Source of the DNA: Clostridiales bacterium
GTDB taxonomy: Bacteria > Bacillota > Clostridia > Saccharofermentanales > Saccharofermentanaceae
Assembly: GCA_017513085.1 (NCBI GenBank)
Contig: JAFWDK010000009.1
Location: forward strand, 64,001-128,000
DNA: 64,000 bases
Reading direction: 5' to 3'
Positions 12,459 through 49,618 of this stretch are shown here, piece by piece; positions within the stretch are counted from its first letter, which is position 1, and each line of letters begins with the position of its first letter. Below the pieces are notes generated by a model. It was not told the DNA's origin and searched no databases. It worked only from the letters and a program-made list of their open reading frames with translations. The position numbers and the translations under genes were made by a program.

Positions 12459-12839
12459 TTGCAGTCTTTTGATGAAATCTATCAGCAATACGCACAGACC
12501 GTGTACAAATATCTTTTGTCACTGACCTATCAGAGCGATCTTTCTGAGGAACTAATACAGGAGACGTTCTATCAGGCGCTAAGAACAATTGACCGTTACG
12601 ACGGGAAATGCAGGATCTCTACATGGCTTTGCGGGATTGCCAAGAATGTGCTTCTTACCTACAGGCGCAAGCATCCGCAACACGAGGATATCGATGACCT
12701 GGCCATCCCCGTGGAATCTTCGGAACAGGATCTGGCTGATCACGGCAGGAGAGACAGGAAGGATCGTCTGGATGGAAGACGAGCCAATCTACGATCGTAC
12801 CTGGGATGTGTGGTCAACGAAGCACATGTACGTTGGTGA
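12459..12839 (+). pseudogene. ECF sigma factor, region 2 only (region 4 missing)
   Basis: GGAGG RBS + TTG; EELIQETFYQA, STWLCGIAKN; similarity ends near 12730 and no region-4 HTH follows. Confidence 0.75.
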
Positions 12840-13200
12840 TATGTCTGCGAATTCCCGTACGGCAAAAGCACTTCTGCTGTCTGAGAAGATAGGCCTTTTT
12901 ACAAATGAACTGCAAACAGAGGAAGAGCCCTATGGCTGGACGATCCTTTTCAGCGAGCCTTTGGATGCAAGTTACGAGAAGTATTATCTTTCCGAAATGA
13001 GAAAGGCGGGCTATGAAATGATTGCGCTGGTCCAAAATCTGGATCATGTGACTTTCCGATACACGATCGATGGCGAGGAATTAGAAGACACATACTTCGC
13101 AGAGGATGCATCGAAGGGATTCGGCCAGGATGTGAAGAACTGCTGGACTAGCGTGAAACTCTTCCAGAATTATGTGCACTGGCTCGATACATCAGATTAA
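12724..13200 (+). pseudogene. C-terminal fragment of a DUF4825-type anti-sigma/extracytoplasmic protein
   Basis: YVGD...NELQTEEEPYGW...IALVQNL motifs in a different frame; no N-terminal anti-sigma or TM part. Confidence 0.6.
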
Positions 13201-14072: not shown

Positions 14073-14951
14073 TCAGTTTTCTTCGTGCGGAAGACGTGTC
14101 GGGGAGGCAAGATTCTTGTTTTTGGCTTCCTCGAGAAGACGGGCGAGTTCTTCTTCAGTATGCTCGATAGGAAGAGAAGAGCCCTGCTTGGTCTTAACGT
14201 CCTTCGGAAATGCCTTGTGGAAGTTTTCTTTTCTGTATTCTTCCGGCGTTTGTCCGGTCTGCTTCTTGAATGCCTGGATGAAGTGGCTCTGTGTCGAGAA
14301 GGAAAGGAACTGGGAGATGCTCAGGCAGGAATAATCGGAATGCTTGAGCATGTGCTTGGCCGCATCGATCTTTTTGATTCGGATAAAATCACTGACGGAT
14401 ACGCCGGTCTCTTTTTTGAAAAGCTTGGAAAAGTAAGCATCGTTTAAGCCAAGATATTCGGACAGATCCGGTACGAGGATACGATCCTGCAAGTGGCTGT
14501 AAATGTACTCAATGGCGCGCACGACATGCTTACTGAAGATGTTATCGAGTCGAAGCGCACGCATGCGTGTGCAATAATCCTGGATGCACTGCTGCTGGAT
14601 CTCATCAAGCTGGTTGGTGTTGGTGGCAGCATCACACTTTTGGATGTAGATATCACTTAAAGAATATGAGGTTTCCACATCCATACCATAGTTGATGCAG
14701 TAACGTGAGATCATGGCAATGGATATGATCAAGTGATACCGCACGTTACGCAATCTGTCAGGAGAGAGTGTGCCGACACCGCGAAGTTCGGAGATATGGT
14801 ACTCGCGAACCTGTCTCATAACTTCTTCCACCTCGCCGGTAGCTACAAGATCGTAAAAGTCAAATTCGTGTTCATAGGAGGAGCGTACCATCAGGCGCTC
14901 ACGTTGCATAAAAAGCAGCCGCTGCAGTTCTTTGTTTACATCATTATCCAT
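14073..14951 (-). CDS. AraC family transcriptional regulator
   Basis: C-terminal AraC HTH (YFSKLFKKETG, FSTQSHFIQAFKKQTGQTPEEYR); probable start MDNDV with GAGGG RBS. Confidence 0.92.
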   Translation of the reverse strand: MDNDVNKELQRLLFMQRERLMVRSSYEHEFDFYDLVATGEVEEVMRQVREYHISELRGVGTLSPDRLRNVRYHLIISIAMISRYCINYGMDVETSYSLSDIYIQKCDAATNTNQLDEIQQQCIQDYCTRMRALRLDNIFSKHVVRAIEYIYSHLQDRILVPDLSEYLGLNDAYFSKLFKKETGVSVSDFIRIKKIDAAKHMLKHSDYSCLSISQFLSFSTQSHFIQAFKKQTGQTPEEYRKENFHKAFPKDVKTKQGSSLPIEHTEEELARLLEEAKNKNLASPTRLPHEEN

Positions 14952-15079
14952 GTTCAGACCCTCACTTTGACATAGATTCATCCCCGTAGTACGTTTTGAA
15001 ACAAACTTACGTCATTATTATGACATAAAGTGCAAAAATTTGGTATCGTTATTTCTGAAATAGTATAGAATATACTCAA

Positions 15080-15261
15080 GTGGGGGATGTGTGAATAGAC
15101 AACCCCAATGCCTCCGTTAGTGAAAGTTTGCCATCTTTCAGACGCACACTACCCTAACCCCCACGCTGACAACATCTTGCACTTCCACATGACACACAGA
15201 TTTAGTTGCAAGAACCTACTCGATGGAAACCCCGCTATCCTGATGGTGGGGTCCATTTTTT
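15080..15261 (+). ncRNA. Putative structured small RNA with C-rich loops
   Basis: TATACT -10 at 15071; nested stems GTGGGGG/CCCCCAC, TGTGTG/CGCACA, TGAAAG/CTTTCA, then TCTTGCA/TGCAAGA; + strand terminator with no + strand gene to terminate. Confidence 0.65.
15223..15261 (+). terminator. Intrinsic terminator of the putative sRNA
   Basis: ATGGA-AA-CCCCGCTATC-CT-GATGGTGGGG-TCCAT followed by a T run; U-tract on the + strand only. Confidence 0.8.
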
Positions 15262-15357
15262 GTCCGGAGCTTCTCAAATATTGTTTTGTTAAACAAAATT
15301 ATAAACTTGAATTAAGCAATTGATTAATAGCAGACAATAATTTCGACATGAAATCGA

Positions 15358-17754
15358 TTATTTGATACCAAATGCCATTCCGATCAGTTGTACGGCATAT
15401 GCAGCAACCCAAGCGATCACACACTGGAAGACGACCATAATAGTTGCCCATTTAGCACCCAGCTCACGCTTTACTGAGGCGACTGCTGCGACACATGGCG
15501 TGTAGAGCAGGCAGAATACCAGAAGAGAGAACGCTGACAAGGGTGACATAGAGGCCAGAACGGCTTCTGTATTTCCAATCAGGACTGTCAGAGTGGACAC
15601 GACGCTCTCTTTGGCAAGGAAACCGGAGATCAGCGCAGTCGAGAATCTCCAATCGCCAAAACCGAGAGGAGAGAAGACAGGTGCGACAAAGCCTGCTATT
15701 ACAGCCAGAATGCTGGCGGCAGAATCTTCAGTCAGAGACAGGCTGGTATCGAAGGATTGCAGGAACCAGATCACGATCGAGGCTATAAAGATGATCGTAA
15801 ATGCACGCTGCAGGAAATCTTTGGCTTTTTCCCAGAGAAGCTGGGTAACATTTTTAAGTCCCGGCATACGGTAATTCGGAAGCTCCATGACAAAAGGAAC
15901 CGCTTTGCCCCGGAATAGAGTGCTTTTGAAAAGGAAGGCAACGAGAATGCCCACAAAGATACCGATGAAATAGAGCGCTACCATGATCAGGCCGCTGTAC
16001 TTTGGGAAGAATGTCGAGCAGAAAAAGCCGTAGATCGGAAGTTTGGCAGAACAGCTCATGAACGGTGTGAGAAGGATCGTCATCTTACGGTCGCGCTCGG
16101 ATGGTAATGTGCGGCTGGCCATAACGCCCGGAACCGTGCAGCCGAAACCTATCAGCATCGGAACGATGCTTCGTCCGGAAAGGCCGATCTTACGAAGAAA
16201 TTTGTCCATGACAAAAGCAACTCTGGCCATATAGCCTGTATCTTCCAGAAGTGAGAGAAAGAAGAACAATGTCACGATGACAGGGAGAAAACTCAGCACG
16301 CTGCCGACACCCGTAAAGATACCGTCGACGACAAGCGAGTGGATGACTTCGTTGACATTCCAGGAAGTAAGCGCACGCGCAGTGACCGAGGTAAGCGAAG
16401 AAATGCCGGATTCCAGAAGTCCTTGGAAAAAAGCGCCGATGACGTTAAACGTCAGAAAGAATATGGAGGCCATGATCAGGATAAAGGCCGGGATTGCTGT
16501 GAATTTTCCGGTCAGTATGCGGTCGATCTTGCGGCTTCTGTGATGCTCTTTGCTTTCTTTCGGCTTGATGACGGTGCGGTCCACGAGCTTTTGGATGAAC
16601 GTGAAACGCATGTCGGCGATGGCGGCGCTCCGGTCCATCCCGGACTCGTCTTCCATCTGTGTGATGATGTGCTCCAAGGTTTCTTTTTCGTTTTGATCCA
16701 ACTCAAGTTTTTCAAGAATGCGCGGATCACCTTCGACAAGTTTGGTGGCGGCAAAGCGCACCGGAATACCTGCTGATTTTGCATGGTCATCGATCAGGAT
16801 CATGATACTGTGAAGACATCTGTGAATAGCGCCGCCTTTGTCGTTTTCGTCGCAGAAATCCAGACGTCCCGGACGTTCCTGATATTTCGCGATATGCAGA
16901 GCATGCGCGACAAGCTCTTCGGTACCTTCGTTCTTAGCTGCTGAGATCGGAACGACAGGAATTCCCAGTTCGTACTCCATCTGATTTACGAGGATCGAAC
17001 CGCCGTTTCCGCGGACTTCGTCCATCATGTTGAGTGCCACGACCATCGGTACATCCAGCTCCATAAGCTGCATGGTGAGGTAAAGATTACGCTCGATGTT
17101 GGTGGCATCCACGATGTTGATGATGCCGCAAGGCTTCTCGTCAAGAATAAACTGACGGGATACGATCTCTTCCGCTGTATACGGAGACATGGAATAAATG
17201 CCGGGAAGATCAGTGATCTCCGTGTTCGGATTGCCTTTGATAACGCCGCTCTTGCGGTCGACCGTAACGCCGGGAAAATTACCGACGTGCTGGTTGGAGC
17301 CGGTAAGCTGGTTAAAAAGTGTTGTTTTACCGGAGTTCTGATTTCCGGCAAGAGCGAAGGTCAGCTTGGTGCCTTCGGGAAGGGGATTCTCATCGGCTTT
17401 GACATGGTAACGTCCGCCTTCGCCGAGACCAGGATGTGCGATGATGATACGGCGGGCTTTCTTTTCTTTCTTTTCTGCCTTCGGGTCAGCAGGTTGAGAA
17501 GACGAATCGGATTTTTGGGAAACGGTTTCTTCGGCCTTTTCCACATCGATCAGTCTGGCATCTTCAAGACGAAGAGTCAATTCGTATCCATGAATACGAA
17601 GTTCCATCGGATCGCCGAGTGGTGCGAGCTGCACCAGTGTTATGGAGGCACCGGGTATAACGCCCATGTCCAAAAAGTGTTGTCTGAGTGCGCCTTCACC
17701 GCCTACATGAAGGATACGGGCGCTTTCGCCTATCTTTAAATCTGCTAATGTCAT
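15358..17754 (-). CDS. feoB: Ferrous iron transporter, FeoA-FeoB fusion
   Basis: N-terminal FeoA (LDMG...APLGDP), G-domain GNQNSGKT / NFPGVT / DLPG / NMMD, gate motifs GFGCTVP and LYTPC. Confidence 0.95.
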   Translation of the reverse strand: MTLADLKIGESARILHVGGEGALRQHFLDMGVIPGASITLVQLAPLGDPMELRIHGYELTLRLEDARLIDVEKAEETVSQKSDSSSQPADPKAEKKEKKARRIIIAHPGLGEGGRYHVKADENPLPEGTKLTFALAGNQNSGKTTLFNQLTGSNQHVGNFPGVTVDRKSGVIKGNPNTEITDLPGIYSMSPYTAEEIVSRQFILDEKPCGIINIVDATNIERNLYLTMQLMELDVPMVVALNMMDEVRGNGGSILVNQMEYELGIPVVPISAAKNEGTEELVAHALHIAKYQERPGRLDFCDENDKGGAIHRCLHSIMILIDDHAKSAGIPVRFAATKLVEGDPRILEKLELDQNEKETLEHIITQMEDESGMDRSAAIADMRFTFIQKLVDRTVIKPKESKEHHRSRKIDRILTGKFTAIPAFILIMASIFFLTFNVIGAFFQGLLESGISSLTSVTARALTSWNVNEVIHSLVVDGIFTGVGSVLSFLPVIVTLFFFLSLLEDTGYMARVAFVMDKFLRKIGLSGRSIVPMLIGFGCTVPGVMASRTLPSERDRKMTILLTPFMSCSAKLPIYGFFCSTFFPKYSGLIMVALYFIGIFVGILVAFLFKSTLFRGKAVPFVMELPNYRMPGLKNVTQLLWEKAKDFLQRAFTIIFIASIVIWFLQSFDTSLSLTEDSAASILAVIAGFVAPVFSPLGFGDWRFSTALISGFLAKESVVSTLTVLIGNTEAVLASMSPLSAFSLLVFCLLYTPCVAAVASVKRELGAKWATIMVVFQCVIAWVAAYAVQLIGMAFGIK

Positions 17755-46800: not shown

Positions 46801-47841
46801 ATGGAAGAAAAGAAAGAGATAATTACAGCCAAAGGCGGGAAAAACGACCGCGAGCATGCAAGAAAGATGGCAGAACGCCGCCTTCGGCTTCATCGTATCC
46901 GCATATTGTCTTCCGTTATTGGTGTGATCTTACTGCTGGCAGCGATCTTCCTGGTTTTTGTAGCGCATTATGATTTCGGAAAAAAAGCATGGATCGTGAA
47001 ATGGGATCCGATCCACGGATATGCATATACCATGTATTCAAAACAGGAATACAGCCATGCACGCATTGTGATCACGGCATCGTCGAAGAAAAGCGAAGAT
47101 CTGACGATCCCGGATACGATCTGGGGCGTACGTGTGGAGGAACTGGCCGACAATAGCATTTCGGACAGTGTGAAGAATATAAAACTCGGAAAGTATGTCT
47201 ATCTGGTTGGAGAAGGTTTCTCCGACAGGACGATTTCTGCTTCGGATGGATATTCGGACACTTCAACATACCTTGCGATCAAGGATAAAGACGCAAGCGG
47301 TTTTTACTATAAACTCCAGAAGGACCAGACTCTTGTAGCATATGCCTATTTTGGCACACAGGAGGCTTATGTGGCGCCATCTACGGCATTCGGTTTCAAG
47401 GTTTCCCGGTGTACGCAATACTATGTGAACGACGACTATCTGGTATTACTGGCTGAAACATTCGCAACACATGAGAGTACAGTTCCATTCAATATGGTTA
47501 AGGTTAAGCAGATCCAGCAGAACGGAATCAACCCTTATATGCGCTATCTTACGAGCAAAGACAGTAAAGATAAGACAAGGAAGCGTATCTACGCTCTTCC
47601 TGAGAATTTTAATTTCCTTCCGGACGGTTCTCCGGCAGATGGAGAGACGGCGATCAAGATGGCATTCCTCCATAACGGAGACGGCAAGGGGAATAATACT
47701 GCACTGGTCATGGCCAAGTATTCGCCTCTGGATTTTATATCTGCGGTCGAGTATATCACGAAATACACAGACGATTGTCACGAACCGGACGAACTCAACT
47801 TTGGTGATTGGACCCGGGATGGCATGGATGTTATCAATTGA
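46801..47841 (+). CDS. Hypothetical membrane-anchored protein with degenerate BspA-LRR cap motifs
   Basis: Basic N-terminus, single TM, LTIPDTIWGVRVEEL motif. Confidence 0.7.
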   Translation: MEEKKEIITAKGGKNDREHARKMAERRLRLHRIRILSSVIGVILLLAAIFLVFVAHYDFGKKAWIVKWDPIHGYAYTMYSKQEYSHARIVITASSKKSEDLTIPDTIWGVRVEELADNSISDSVKNIKLGKYVYLVGEGFSDRTISASDGYSDTSTYLAIKDKDASGFYYKLQKDQTLVAYAYFGTQEAYVAPSTAFGFKVSRCTQYYVNDDYLVLLAETFATHESTVPFNMVKVKQIQQNGINPYMRYLTSKDSKDKTRKRIYALPENFNFLPDGSPADGETAIKMAFLHNGDGKGNNTALVMAKYSPLDFISAVEYITKYTDDCHEPDELNFGDWTRDGMDVIN

Positions 47842-47851
47842 TATGTGAACC

Positions 47852-48511
47852 TTAGCCGATACCGATCGAGGTAGTGGCTGTGGATATAGTATCTTCCGGC
47901 GGATCATCCGGATCGATGAATTCAAAGAGACTTCCGCCTACAACTTCGATAAGAATATATTTGTATCCTTTTTGATAAAAGATCACGCTGCCTTCGTTGA
48001 TGCCTTTGCTGGCAAGTTCTTCGGTAGGGATCTTAGAGTCATCGCGGGAGACGATCTTCGCACGGGATTCAAGATCTTCCCATTCCGGAGGAAGGCCGTA
48101 GATGATGGTCTTACCCTCCCAGGTATAAAGCTTTCCATTGAACATGACATACATTTCAGACTCGGTATATGGCTTTTCCATATCTTTGACACGGGTCAGG
48201 ATCCGGCAACTGACATAAGCGGCTATGCAGTAAGTGGACCATAGAAGCACGACAATGATGGAAAGTAACTGGATGGCGAACCATTTTTTGAAATAGGCAA
48301 TGGTCAGGATGATGATCAAGATCGCCCCGGCAATCGCGTAGCCATAGTAGATCTTATAGTACGGATCGTAGGATACCAGACCATTGACACCGACGATGTT
48401 TAATATGGAAAGACCTGCGATCAGAACGATTTCTATTATCGTCATGATCAGGATCGCTTTCTTTGTTTTGTTCTTTTCGCTCGAAATAGTTTTGTTTTCT
48501 GGTCTGGACAT
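47852..48511 (-). CDS. Hypothetical membrane protein (3 TM + soluble domain)
   Basis: 219-aa ORF, AGGAG RBS. Confidence 0.75.
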   Translation of the reverse strand: MSRPENKTISSEKNKTKKAILIMTIIEIVLIAGLSILNIVGVNGLVSYDPYYKIYYGYAIAGAILIIILTIAYFKKWFAIQLLSIIVVLLWSTYCIAAYVSCRILTRVKDMEKPYTESEMYVMFNGKLYTWEGKTIIYGLPPEWEDLESRAKIVSRDDSKIPTEELASKGINEGSVIFYQKGYKYILIEVVGGSLFEFIDPDDPPEDTISTATTSIGIG

Positions 48512-48639
48512 TTTTGCGGCTCCTAAAATATGTTACGGCAATGATTATAATCCAAAGCTTGAAAAAAGAAAAACAACTTTCATTTTTCCTTGTTTTCGAG
48601 TATAGTCAAAGTAGAAATCCATGACAGGAGGAGATGCAT

Positions 48640-48840
48640 ATGGCAGTATCATTGAACCCGGATGCGAAGATCGTGGAAACGATTCGTGAAGGCTTAAAGA
48701 AGAAGGGCGGCTATTGTCCGTGCCGGATGGAAGAAACAGAAGAGACGAAGTGCATGTGTAAGGAATTCCGTGACCAGATCGCAGATCCGGAATTTGAAGG
48801 ATTCTGTCACTGCATGCTTTACTATAAATCCAAAGATTGA
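48640..48840 (+). CDS. Ferredoxin:thioredoxin reductase catalytic-subunit-like protein
   Basis: GYCPCR, CMC and CHC motifs; AGGAGG RBS; adjacent to trxA. Confidence 0.85.
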   Translation: MAVSLNPDAKIVETIREGLKKKGGYCPCRMEETEETKCMCKEFRDQIADPEFEGFCHCMLYYKSKD

Positions 48841-48852
48841 AAGGAGAAGAAA

Positions 48853-49167
48853 ATGGCAGAGATTACATTAAACGCTGAGAATTTCCAGCAGGAAGTTATG
48901 GAATCCGATATCCCGGTCGTAGTCGATTTCTGGGCAACATGGTGCGGACCATGTCAGATGGTTGCTCCGATCCTTGAAGAGATTGCGGTGGAGAACGAAG
49001 GAAAGATCAAAGTCGGAAAGGTCAATGTTGATGAGAACCGTGACCTGGCTATGGAATACAAGATCTCCAGCATTCCAACCATGATCCTGTTTAAGAATGG
49101 TGAACCGGTAGATATGTCGTTGGGATACAAGACCAAGGATCAGCTTCTGAAGTTCCTTTTCGGCTGA
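48853..49167 (+). CDS. trxA: Thioredoxin
   Basis: DFWATWCGPC, SIPT. Confidence 0.96.
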   Translation: MAEITLNAENFQQEVMESDIPVVVDFWATWCGPCQMVAPILEEIAVENEGKIKVGKVNVDENRDLAMEYKISSIPTMILFKNGEPVDMSLGYKTKDQLLKFLFG

Positions 49168-49229
49168 AAGAAGCAGGGAAGACTTCTTCGGAAGAGCCTG
49201 ATCCCTGAAGATCTACAATAACTGCAAAA

Positions 49230-49259
49230 AAAGAGCCGCTACATATGTAGCGGCTCTTT
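49230..49259. terminator. Perfect 30-bp palindrome, bidirectional terminator
   Basis: AAAGAGCCGCTACAT|ATGTAGCGGCTCTTT between convergent genes. Confidence 0.8.
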
Positions 49260-49276
49260 CATGCCATCTTATACAC

Positions 49277-49618
49277 TCACACTACTGGAGTTTTCATCTT
49301 ATCATAAGCTTCTCTTGCGATTGCACGAACACTCGGATCAGAATCCGCAAATGCGAGTTTCTTGAGATATTCTTCGCAATGCTTAGCGTTAATGTTGCCG
49401 GCAGACTCAGCTGCAGCTGCACGTACCAACGGTGAAGGATCTCTAAAAAGGGGAATCAAATGCATACCTGATTCATAAGTACTAATCTGCCCCATTGCCT
49501 TCGCTACTGCTACACGGATCTCATCTTCGGGATCCTCAGCCATTTTCAACAGCGCGCCCAGATTCTGTTTCTTGCCAAGCTTCTCGATCTTTTCTGTCAG
49601 TCTATCAATTTTTGCCAT
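49277..49618 (-). CDS. HEAT-repeat protein
   Basis: Repeated DP...(I/V)R..A...(M/A)G units; AGGGG RBS. Confidence 0.85.
   Translation of the reverse strand: MAKIDRLTEKIEKLGKKQNLGALLKMAEDPEDEIRVAVAKAMGQISTYESGMHLIPLFRDPSPLVRAAAAESAGNINAKHCEEYLKKLAFADSDPSVRAIAREAYDKMKTPVV

Follow-up and report, generated by a model that had tools for sequence, protein, structure and literature searches.

A predicted small RNA encoded divergently from an AraC-family gene in gut Saccharofermentanaceae

We report here a small RNA gene that lies divergent from an araC gene throughout one genus of Saccharofermentanaceae; it is a real element and apparently represents an undescribed sRNA family, narrow in range. The genus is known from herbivore gut samples and comprises bacteria of plant-fibre-eating animals; hardly anything has been described about small RNAs in uncultured Clostridia of the rumen and hindgut. 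The function that we favour, with fairly modest confidence, is that of a dedicated two-gene module, in which AraC activates a trans-acting sRNA of about 185 nt that blocks mRNAs by anti-Shine-Dalgarno (anti-SD) pairing, probably as a form of carbohydrate control. Transcription of the RNA, the binding and activating role of AraC, the base-pairing and the signal are all things that we infer.

Results

A conserved structured RNA opposite araC

The RNA gene is single-copy in the host genome. In the window (the whole stretch of DNA analysed, 64,000 nt, to which all coordinates refer unless a contig or locus is named), the AraC gene flanks it on one side and a feoA-feoB fusion, whose 3′ end faces it, on the other. 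All of the motifs named in a preliminary description of this DNA are present where it had placed them. The features discussed below are these.

14073–14951, − strand: AraC-family regulator gene (Pfam HTH_18/HTH_AraC, with a C-terminal HTH_18); likely start 14951
15013–15026, + strand: predicted operator half-site 1 (CATTATTATGACAT), from sequence conservation
15033–15046, + strand: predicted operator half-site 2 (CAAAAATTTGGTAT), which follows half-site 1 at a distance of 20 bp and occupies the −35 position of the promoter for the RNA
15066–15071, + strand: conserved −10 hexamer, TAGAAT at 16 of 24 loci and TAAAAT at 8
15077–15262, + strand: predicted small RNA, about 185 nt, with its 5′ end inferred from the −10
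15080–15164, + strand: domain 1, with stems P1 (15080–86/15158–64, covarying), P2 (15089–93/15145–49) and P3 (15115–26/15135–44)
15094–15114, + strand: single-stranded 21-nt bulge with the conserved seed ACCCCAAUGCCUC(CG), anti-SD-like; 15 of 22 columns invariant
15127–15134, + strand: P3 loop UUUGCCAU, open, 7 of 8 columns invariant, complementary to AUGGCAA(A)
15175–15213, + strand: domain 2, the P4 hairpin, covarying and with a conserved GAC(A)CAC in its loop
15229–15261, + strand: intrinsic terminator with a U-tract; 6 of 10 pairs covary
15333–15349, + strand: motif like a third operator half-site, of the form GACAATGAATTTGATA, between the terminator and the feoB stop; 17 of 24 loci
15358–17754, − strand: feoA-feoB fusion (Pfam), convergent neighbour of the RNA gene

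The + strand of the host sequence folds into P1, an inner hairpin, P4 and the terminator at −53.4 kcal/mol (z −2.44), a value that 2 of 200 shuffles equalled. An alignment of 22 sequences (the 24 genus loci minus one near-duplicate and one truncated sequence) gave a consensus of P1, P2, the 21-nt bulge, P3, P4 and the terminator, in which 14 of 37 pairs show two-sided changes and 98.3% of cells are paired. When partners were slid by 1–3 columns as a control, 40–54% of cells paired; the kinship of the aligned sequences inflates the shuffle control. By element, two-sided changes occur in 5/5 pairs of P1, 6/10 of the terminator, 1/10 of P3 and 2/7 of P4, all of whose cells (100%) are paired, while P2 is invariant. 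Conservation among relatives, together with covariation in P1, P4 and the terminator, lifts the element well above chance and supports the unannotated, structured, non-coding + strand RNA that the preliminary description had proposed opposite the AraC gene. Most of the stems that it drew, namely P1, the inner hairpin and the domain 2 stem, were recovered; its TGTGTG/CGCACA register in domain 1 was not, the consensus pairing being GUGUG (15089–93) with CACAC (15145–49).

Folding energy gives no choice of strand, the alignment folding at −82.5 (+) and −84.9 (−). The sole terminator-like site in 14500–15800 lies on the + strand (15229–15252), but this is not significant by itself because shuffles give 0.9. 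The + strand is nevertheless favoured, because at least 6 Ts stand within 10 nt after the terminator stem in 16/22 homologs on the + strand and in 0/22 on the −, as the U-tract on the + strand only had led the earlier description to expect, and because the −10, TAGAAT or TAAAAT, is kept at 24/24 loci. These two observations also count against the idea of a DNA-level or cis element (a minus-strand araC leader or the end of the feoB transcript) with no independent RNA. Minus-strand folds are indeed about equally stable in many homologs, but a possible extended −10 for araC is situated between that gene and the element, and we regard this idea as extremely unlikely.

Equally unlikely is a small-peptide mRNA or dual-function RNA translated from an invariant AUG at 15107 (MPPL...). 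The frame is open in 22/22 homologs, yet its length is inconstant (21 to >54 codons), most of the few changes in the core are non-synonymous, and no SD stands at a usable distance. Judged by its sequence, then, the frame is not a conserved peptide; the preliminary description had named a translated small ORF as one finding that would count against its reading, and no conserved reading frame was found.

Rfam 15 produced 0 matches at the gathering threshold in the window, with best E values of 1.9–9.8 in 14900–15400, far below gathering, in agreement with the preliminary description, which did not recognise it as a named RNA family. 6S RNA (RF00013, a rod with a central bubble) was rejected: the 6S-like match of this genome lies elsewhere (contig C14, E 1.6e-7, just under the cut-off), and the fold differs.

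Of the 62 columns in the core of the RNA (15089–15149), 50 are invariant; for third codon positions of araC at the same loci the figure is 14 of 230. The core contains CCCCAAUGCCUCC and the P3 loop, and P2/P3 are sequence-invariant on both strands. Seed pairing alone does not account for the invariance of P2/P3, which together with that of the P3 loop keeps two rival explanations alive, one based on protein binding and the other on start-codon pairing. According to the first, which we hold to be rather unlikely, the AraC-controlled RNA is a scaffold or sponge for a protein (Hfq, KhpA/B, an ANTAR protein or other), with GAC(A/G)(A/C) repeats and the invariant P2/P3 as its surface. Of 5 homologs checked, 4 have between three and five copies of the repeat, and our searches found no mRNA target, both of which suit a scaffold as the double-stranded invariance does. 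Against it, there are no paired six-base hairpins of the ANTAR type, and, besides CACACUUU, the only part clearly common to the shorter RNA of a sister genus (below) is the C-rich anti-SD-like stretch. A protein sponge had also been offered as an alternative in the preliminary description. While scaffold and sponge in general stay as rivals, the failure to find CsrA in the 99% complete genome makes a CsrA sponge unlikely. CsrB/RsmZ-type sponges were accordingly rejected: PF02599 was not found in the host genome, a search that as a control detected it in 3 of 14 genomes, and the loops are C/A-rich rather than repeated GGA.

Distribution of the RNA

The RNA is present in 24/24 genomes of the genus, always divergent from the same AraC gene. 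BLAST located it in 23/23 other genus genomes and in 0/12 other genomes of the family; two more distant matches cover only short AT-rich flanks and were set aside. A covariance model recovered all 24 genus genomes, with one false terminator match among 118 other family genomes; its match in G024 (L155) is the tsf-pyrH terminator and not an RNA homolog. Applied to 52 of 80 AraC loci and 3 others, the model matched only the 7 genus loci. With the model, no homolog was found in 100 genomes of the sister genus g2, where 17 candidates were scored per genome and sensitivity was therefore low, or with the seed pattern in 41 genomes of g2, where matches stood at the control level. A 16-mer scan of metagenomes yielded 2 true genus-type homologs among the matches listed (80 loci), and viral pattern matches (L030 and L031) fall inside coding sequence, implying chance.

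Of the genera searched, the RNA was found in only two. The second is another sister genus, represented by G028, in which a 125-nt three-hairpin RNA (z −6.5) that contains AACCCCUCUCCUCC faces AraC; Rfam gave no match for it. The covariance model scored this RNA at E 5.5e-4 with filters off and missed it with default filters on, and because of this discrepancy we treat it as a likely but not proven shorter homolog at the same place. It has in common with the genus RNA the GUAGG start, AACCCC...CCUCC, CACACUUU, the UUUCAU linker and the terminator, and is without P2/P3 and the P3 loop.

At the G028 locus the next gene encodes a cyclophilin, and there is no feoB; the RNA therefore travels with araC and not with feoB. 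Although feoB adjoins the RNA gene at 23/24 genus loci, the feoA-feoB fusion is probably outside the AraC-RNA module. The preliminary description had read the proximity of feoAB as a hint, short of proof, of a role in iron or carbon metabolism. The corresponding explanation would be an iron-sparing sRNA like FsrA or IsrR, linked to feoAB and under Fur control; besides the adjacency, it could appeal to the two Fur-family genes present and to IsrR, which, in the available part of its description (PMC11257911), uses C-rich regions against ribosome-binding sites. The link is weakened because feoB is not the neighbour at the sister-genus locus and because no Fur-like box was seen in the RNA promoter, where nothing comes closer than 5 mismatches to a 7-1-7 Fur consensus, which may not be the host's. 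The promoter carries an AraC-type box, and we consider an iron-sparing role very unlikely.

Three smaller observations concern these loci. In genus g2 (G035, L036:2379-3823), a related AraC gene stands directly behind the cyclophilin gene, likewise in the proS-rluA neighbourhood; the two genes leave no intergenic space, and the RNA is absent. The motif at 15333–15349, counted at the 24 loci by a hand-written pattern, is absent where feoB ends right after the terminator. Among four public contig sets, one RNA-library contig (depth 2) spans 15129–15279, and two others, at low overall depth, do not cover the RNA; because the first runs beyond the terminator, it may be DNA.

AraC and its predicted operator

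The AraC protein is 87–99% identical in 23/23 genus genomes, above FeoB (mostly 80–85%). Its best NCBIfam match, TIGR04094, is under the cut-off of that family. The N-terminal domain is all-helical and about 135 aa long (predicted model, pLDDT 83); it has no Pfam match and no clear fold match (best Z about 8–9, to helical bundles, for the whole-protein model), and a structure-atlas search with it returned only hypothetical clusters. ToxT, an AraC-family protein, is among the fold matches of the host AraC. The AraC of G028 is 53% identical and groups with the RNA-linked AraC clade (support 94/92).

Upstream of the RNA there is a conserved element, ATTATGACAY-N12-WWTGGTAT, consisting of two half-sites with a 20-bp period. 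It occurs exactly, once per genome, in 24/24 genus genomes and in G028, whereas among the 275 remaining genomes of the order five 1-mismatch matches are equalled by five control matches. In the host genome its matrix score is 53.8, and the next-best site reaches 10.4. AraC-activated promoters have tandem direct half-sites about 20–21 bp apart, the second of them at −35; the layout here is the same, with tandem direct half-sites 20 bp apart and the second at −35.

Paralogous AraCs (40–45% identical) lie head-to-head with GH5 or GH16 genes (from Pfam for 5 loci), and their loci offer an independent view of the box. Searched in the same orientation, the RNA-box matrix scores at ≤1/100 shuffles at 4 of 7 GH5-first loci and at 3–4/100 at 2 more; at GH16-first loci, 0/7 are significant at ≤1/100. 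The unique tandem box, its co-occurrence with this AraC clade and the similar box at paralogous AraC/GH5 loci support the prediction that the adjacent AraC binds the box and activates the RNA. This comparative evidence also speaks for the activator-dependent, AraC-activated promoter suggested in the preliminary description. With no second copy of the box in the genome, the RNA is apparently AraC's sole direct output. Because the genes that sister AraC clades face divergently are GH5/GH16 glucanase genes, a carbohydrate cue is the most likely signal; we only infer this, since the glucanase-linked AraCs form a clade separate from the RNA-linked AraC.

The details of the promoter differ somewhat from those first described. 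TATACT (15071–76), the −10 originally named, is itself found at 5/24 loci, and TAGAAT/TAAAAT at 15066–71 (24/24) is the better choice; TATACT may still serve, because its position reads TAnnnT in 17/24. A GTCAT/ATGAC palindrome was not borne out, its arms being complementary at only 2/24 loci. On the − strand, araC may have an extended −10, which half-site 1 would overlap.

The seed and its potential targets

By computation the RNA has several features of a C-rich anti-SD sRNA: its own −10 and terminator, no conserved reading frame, and a conserved single-stranded C-rich/CCUCC seed. The preliminary description spoke of several exposed, C-rich, anti-SD-like loops. Two of its segments, AACCCCAA and GCCTCCG, hold, and form one 21-nt bulge; the other three are not conserved, with invariant columns numbering 2/8 in ACCCTAA, 1/7 in CTTCCAC and 0/8 in AACCTAC. 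What is conserved and exposed is thus one C-rich bulge and an invariant hairpin loop, the latter not C-rich. Opening the bulge seed costs 1.0 kcal/mol in the host (median 3.2 across 22 homologs), and opening the P3 loop about 0.35 kcal/mol. Because the seed is predicted to be open, the host has Hfq and KhpA/B genes, and CsrA was not found, anti-SD pairing is the most likely mode of action, by analogy with the available accounts of AbcR1/2, RsaE/RoxS and IsrR.

We looked for targets in the start regions of 2528 host genes, called by a simple script that may have misplaced some starts. With seeds shuffled but CCUCC left intact as the control, no region stood out: the best pairing is −25.8 kcal/mol, compared with −24.5 to −30.1 for 12 such shuffles. 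Across the 24 genomes, complements of the seed are no commoner than the control, and no long complement is conserved. Three individual candidates gained no support. The two genes ranked best by accessibility have a patchy distribution: an OPT transporter occurs in 6/24 genomes only and its site is not kept, and a flavodoxin-like gene has close orthologs in 3/10 genomes, again without the site. The third, araC's own leader, ranks at the 84th percentile in the host genome, with a median at the 10th in the genus. As a separate matter, the OPT-family transporter (L276; contig C17 of the host, 47484–49466) is 98–99% identical among the six genus genomes that have it, which suggests recent transfer.

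Some sites are well kept. GGAGGCA is retained at a GH94 phosphorylase gene (24/24 loci in 23 genomes) and at hup (24/24 loci), and GGAGGC(A/G) at a sugar ABC permease gene (16/20 loci); GGAGG is followed by C in only 106 of 828 host genes. In the control, 4 of 7 ribosomal-cluster genes are as invariant as the GH94 and hup sites, and of the GH94 genes in a genus where no such RNA was found, 25/28 retain GGAGGC. The GH94 leader of G028 has no compensatory change to the G028 seed. The GH94 phosphorylase, hup and sugar ABC permease genes are target candidates only, at a level of conservation not beyond controls. Because no target beat its controls, pairing with multiple targets is put forward here as a proposal.

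The P3 loop underlies the second rival explanation, that of a general decoy of translation-initiation regions, in which the bulge pairs with SD sequences and the loop with AUG-GCA-A starts, and many mRNAs are damped. The loop is nearly invariant and open, and ATGGCAA is the 7th commonest start 7-mer (45/2528 genes, some of them with EF-Tu-, DnaK- and ribosomal-protein-like N-termini, named by eye). However, the order of the segments demands a pseudoknot-like double helix, both sites of the sole gene in which the two are strong (the flavodoxin-like one) are missing from 4 close orthologs, finding CAU in a loop amounts to a modest coincidence, and the G028 RNA is without the P3 loop; a general decoy is quite unlikely. 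The loop also has UUGCCA in common with the anticodon loop of the host tRNA-Gly(GCC), which we take as coincidence because no other tRNA feature is present.

Three further observations were made at glycoside hydrolase genes. CGGAGGC at the GH94 ribosome-binding site is kept in most g2 genomes (L345–L377) despite a diverging leader, and occurs at 16 of 828 genes in the host; at these g2 leaders it may mark control by another RNA or protein. In the genus (L321–L344), a conserved CGAAACGTTCCG-like box stands upstream of the GH94 promoter, which we take to be, probably, a LacI/CcpA-type operator. Finally, in the region L037:3020-4252, where a GH5 gene faces an AraC paralog, 12 nt of the seed recur (CCCCAATGCCTC) in what is either a long leader or an N-terminal extension of the GH5 gene, probably by chance.

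Discussion

In the two-gene module that we favour, AraC, responding most likely to a carbohydrate cue, would bind two direct half-sites 20 bp apart (15013–46), the second at the −35 of a promoter that has a good −10 and no −35. Binding would switch on an RNA of about 185 nt, AraC's only direct output, that ends at its own terminator, and would probably also affect the overlapping araC promoter. The P1/P2/P3 scaffold would keep the 21-nt bulge CAACCCCAAUGCCUCC open, and its seed could then pair with ribosome-binding sites of the GGAGG(CA) or GGGG type in several mRNAs, probably with the help of Hfq, such that translation of the bound mRNAs would be blocked. By analogy, the RNA probably silences mRNAs by covering their ribosome-binding sites, and most likely works like other regulator-coupled anti-SD sRNAs.

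Regulator-adjacent anti-SD sRNAs are a known design, as the available parts of two reports describe (PMC8844928, PMC6158497). The closest likeness is to AbcR1/AbcR2 with LsrB in Sinorhizobium meliloti (PMC8844928, in part): there too the sRNA adjoins the gene of its activating transcription factor, anti-SD motifs are exposed, and the host has Hfq. Targets in metabolism and transport, which we propose here, were validated there. The differences are that the activator is of the LysR family there and of the AraC family here, that AbcR1/AbcR2 are alphaproteobacterial, and that there is no sequence or Rfam similarity. RsaE/RoxS and IsrR of Bacillales (PMC6158497, PMC11257911, both in part) are, like the RNA proposed here, trans-acting sRNAs of Firmicutes with C-rich segments directed against SD sequences, although the pairing is predicted in our case. 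In those sRNAs there is more than one C-rich region, and control is exerted by SrrAB/ResDE/Rex or Fur; in the genus RNA a single C-rich bulge is conserved, the promoter is of the AraC type, and Rfam gives no match.

Activation by an AraC-family protein, predicted here, has a parallel in TarA/TarB of Vibrio cholerae, which ToxT activates; TarA represses a sugar transporter (PMC10335731, in the part available). ToxT, however, has a wide protein-coding regulon, whereas in our case the genome holds a single box and the RNA gene lies divergently beside araC. The AraC-GH5/GH16 units of Saccharofermentanaceae resemble the RNA locus in their homologous AraC, head-to-head layout and related tandem box, but their output is a glycoside hydrolase gene instead of a non-coding RNA, and the AraC groups are separate clades. 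Our search of literature listings and the openings of abstracts on small or noncoding RNA in Saccharofermentanaceae and on the AraC-RNA architecture found no description; supplementary motif tables of large RNA-discovery studies could hold the motif.

The RNA family has so far shown no new mechanism. It suggests, though, how a glucanase-type AraC switch can turn to post-transcriptional control, and its defined operator, candidate activator, covariance model and single seed make activator, signal and targets each directly testable. A bolder version, which we regard as a long shot, is that an AraC lineage that senses carbohydrates, and has relatives that activate glucanase genes, was rewired to a sole output, an RNA whose invariant scaffold would display an anti-SD bulge together with an anti-start-codon loop. 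Such an RNA would be a broad clamp on translation initiation and an RNA-level catabolite switch in uncultured herbivore-gut Clostridia.

One last observation concerns another part of the window. At 12459–13200, an ECF-sigma-like frame (Sigma70_r2, 12459–12839) overlaps a DUF4825 frame (12589–13200), which suggests a frameshift or deletion that joined a truncated sigma gene to its anti-sigma partner.
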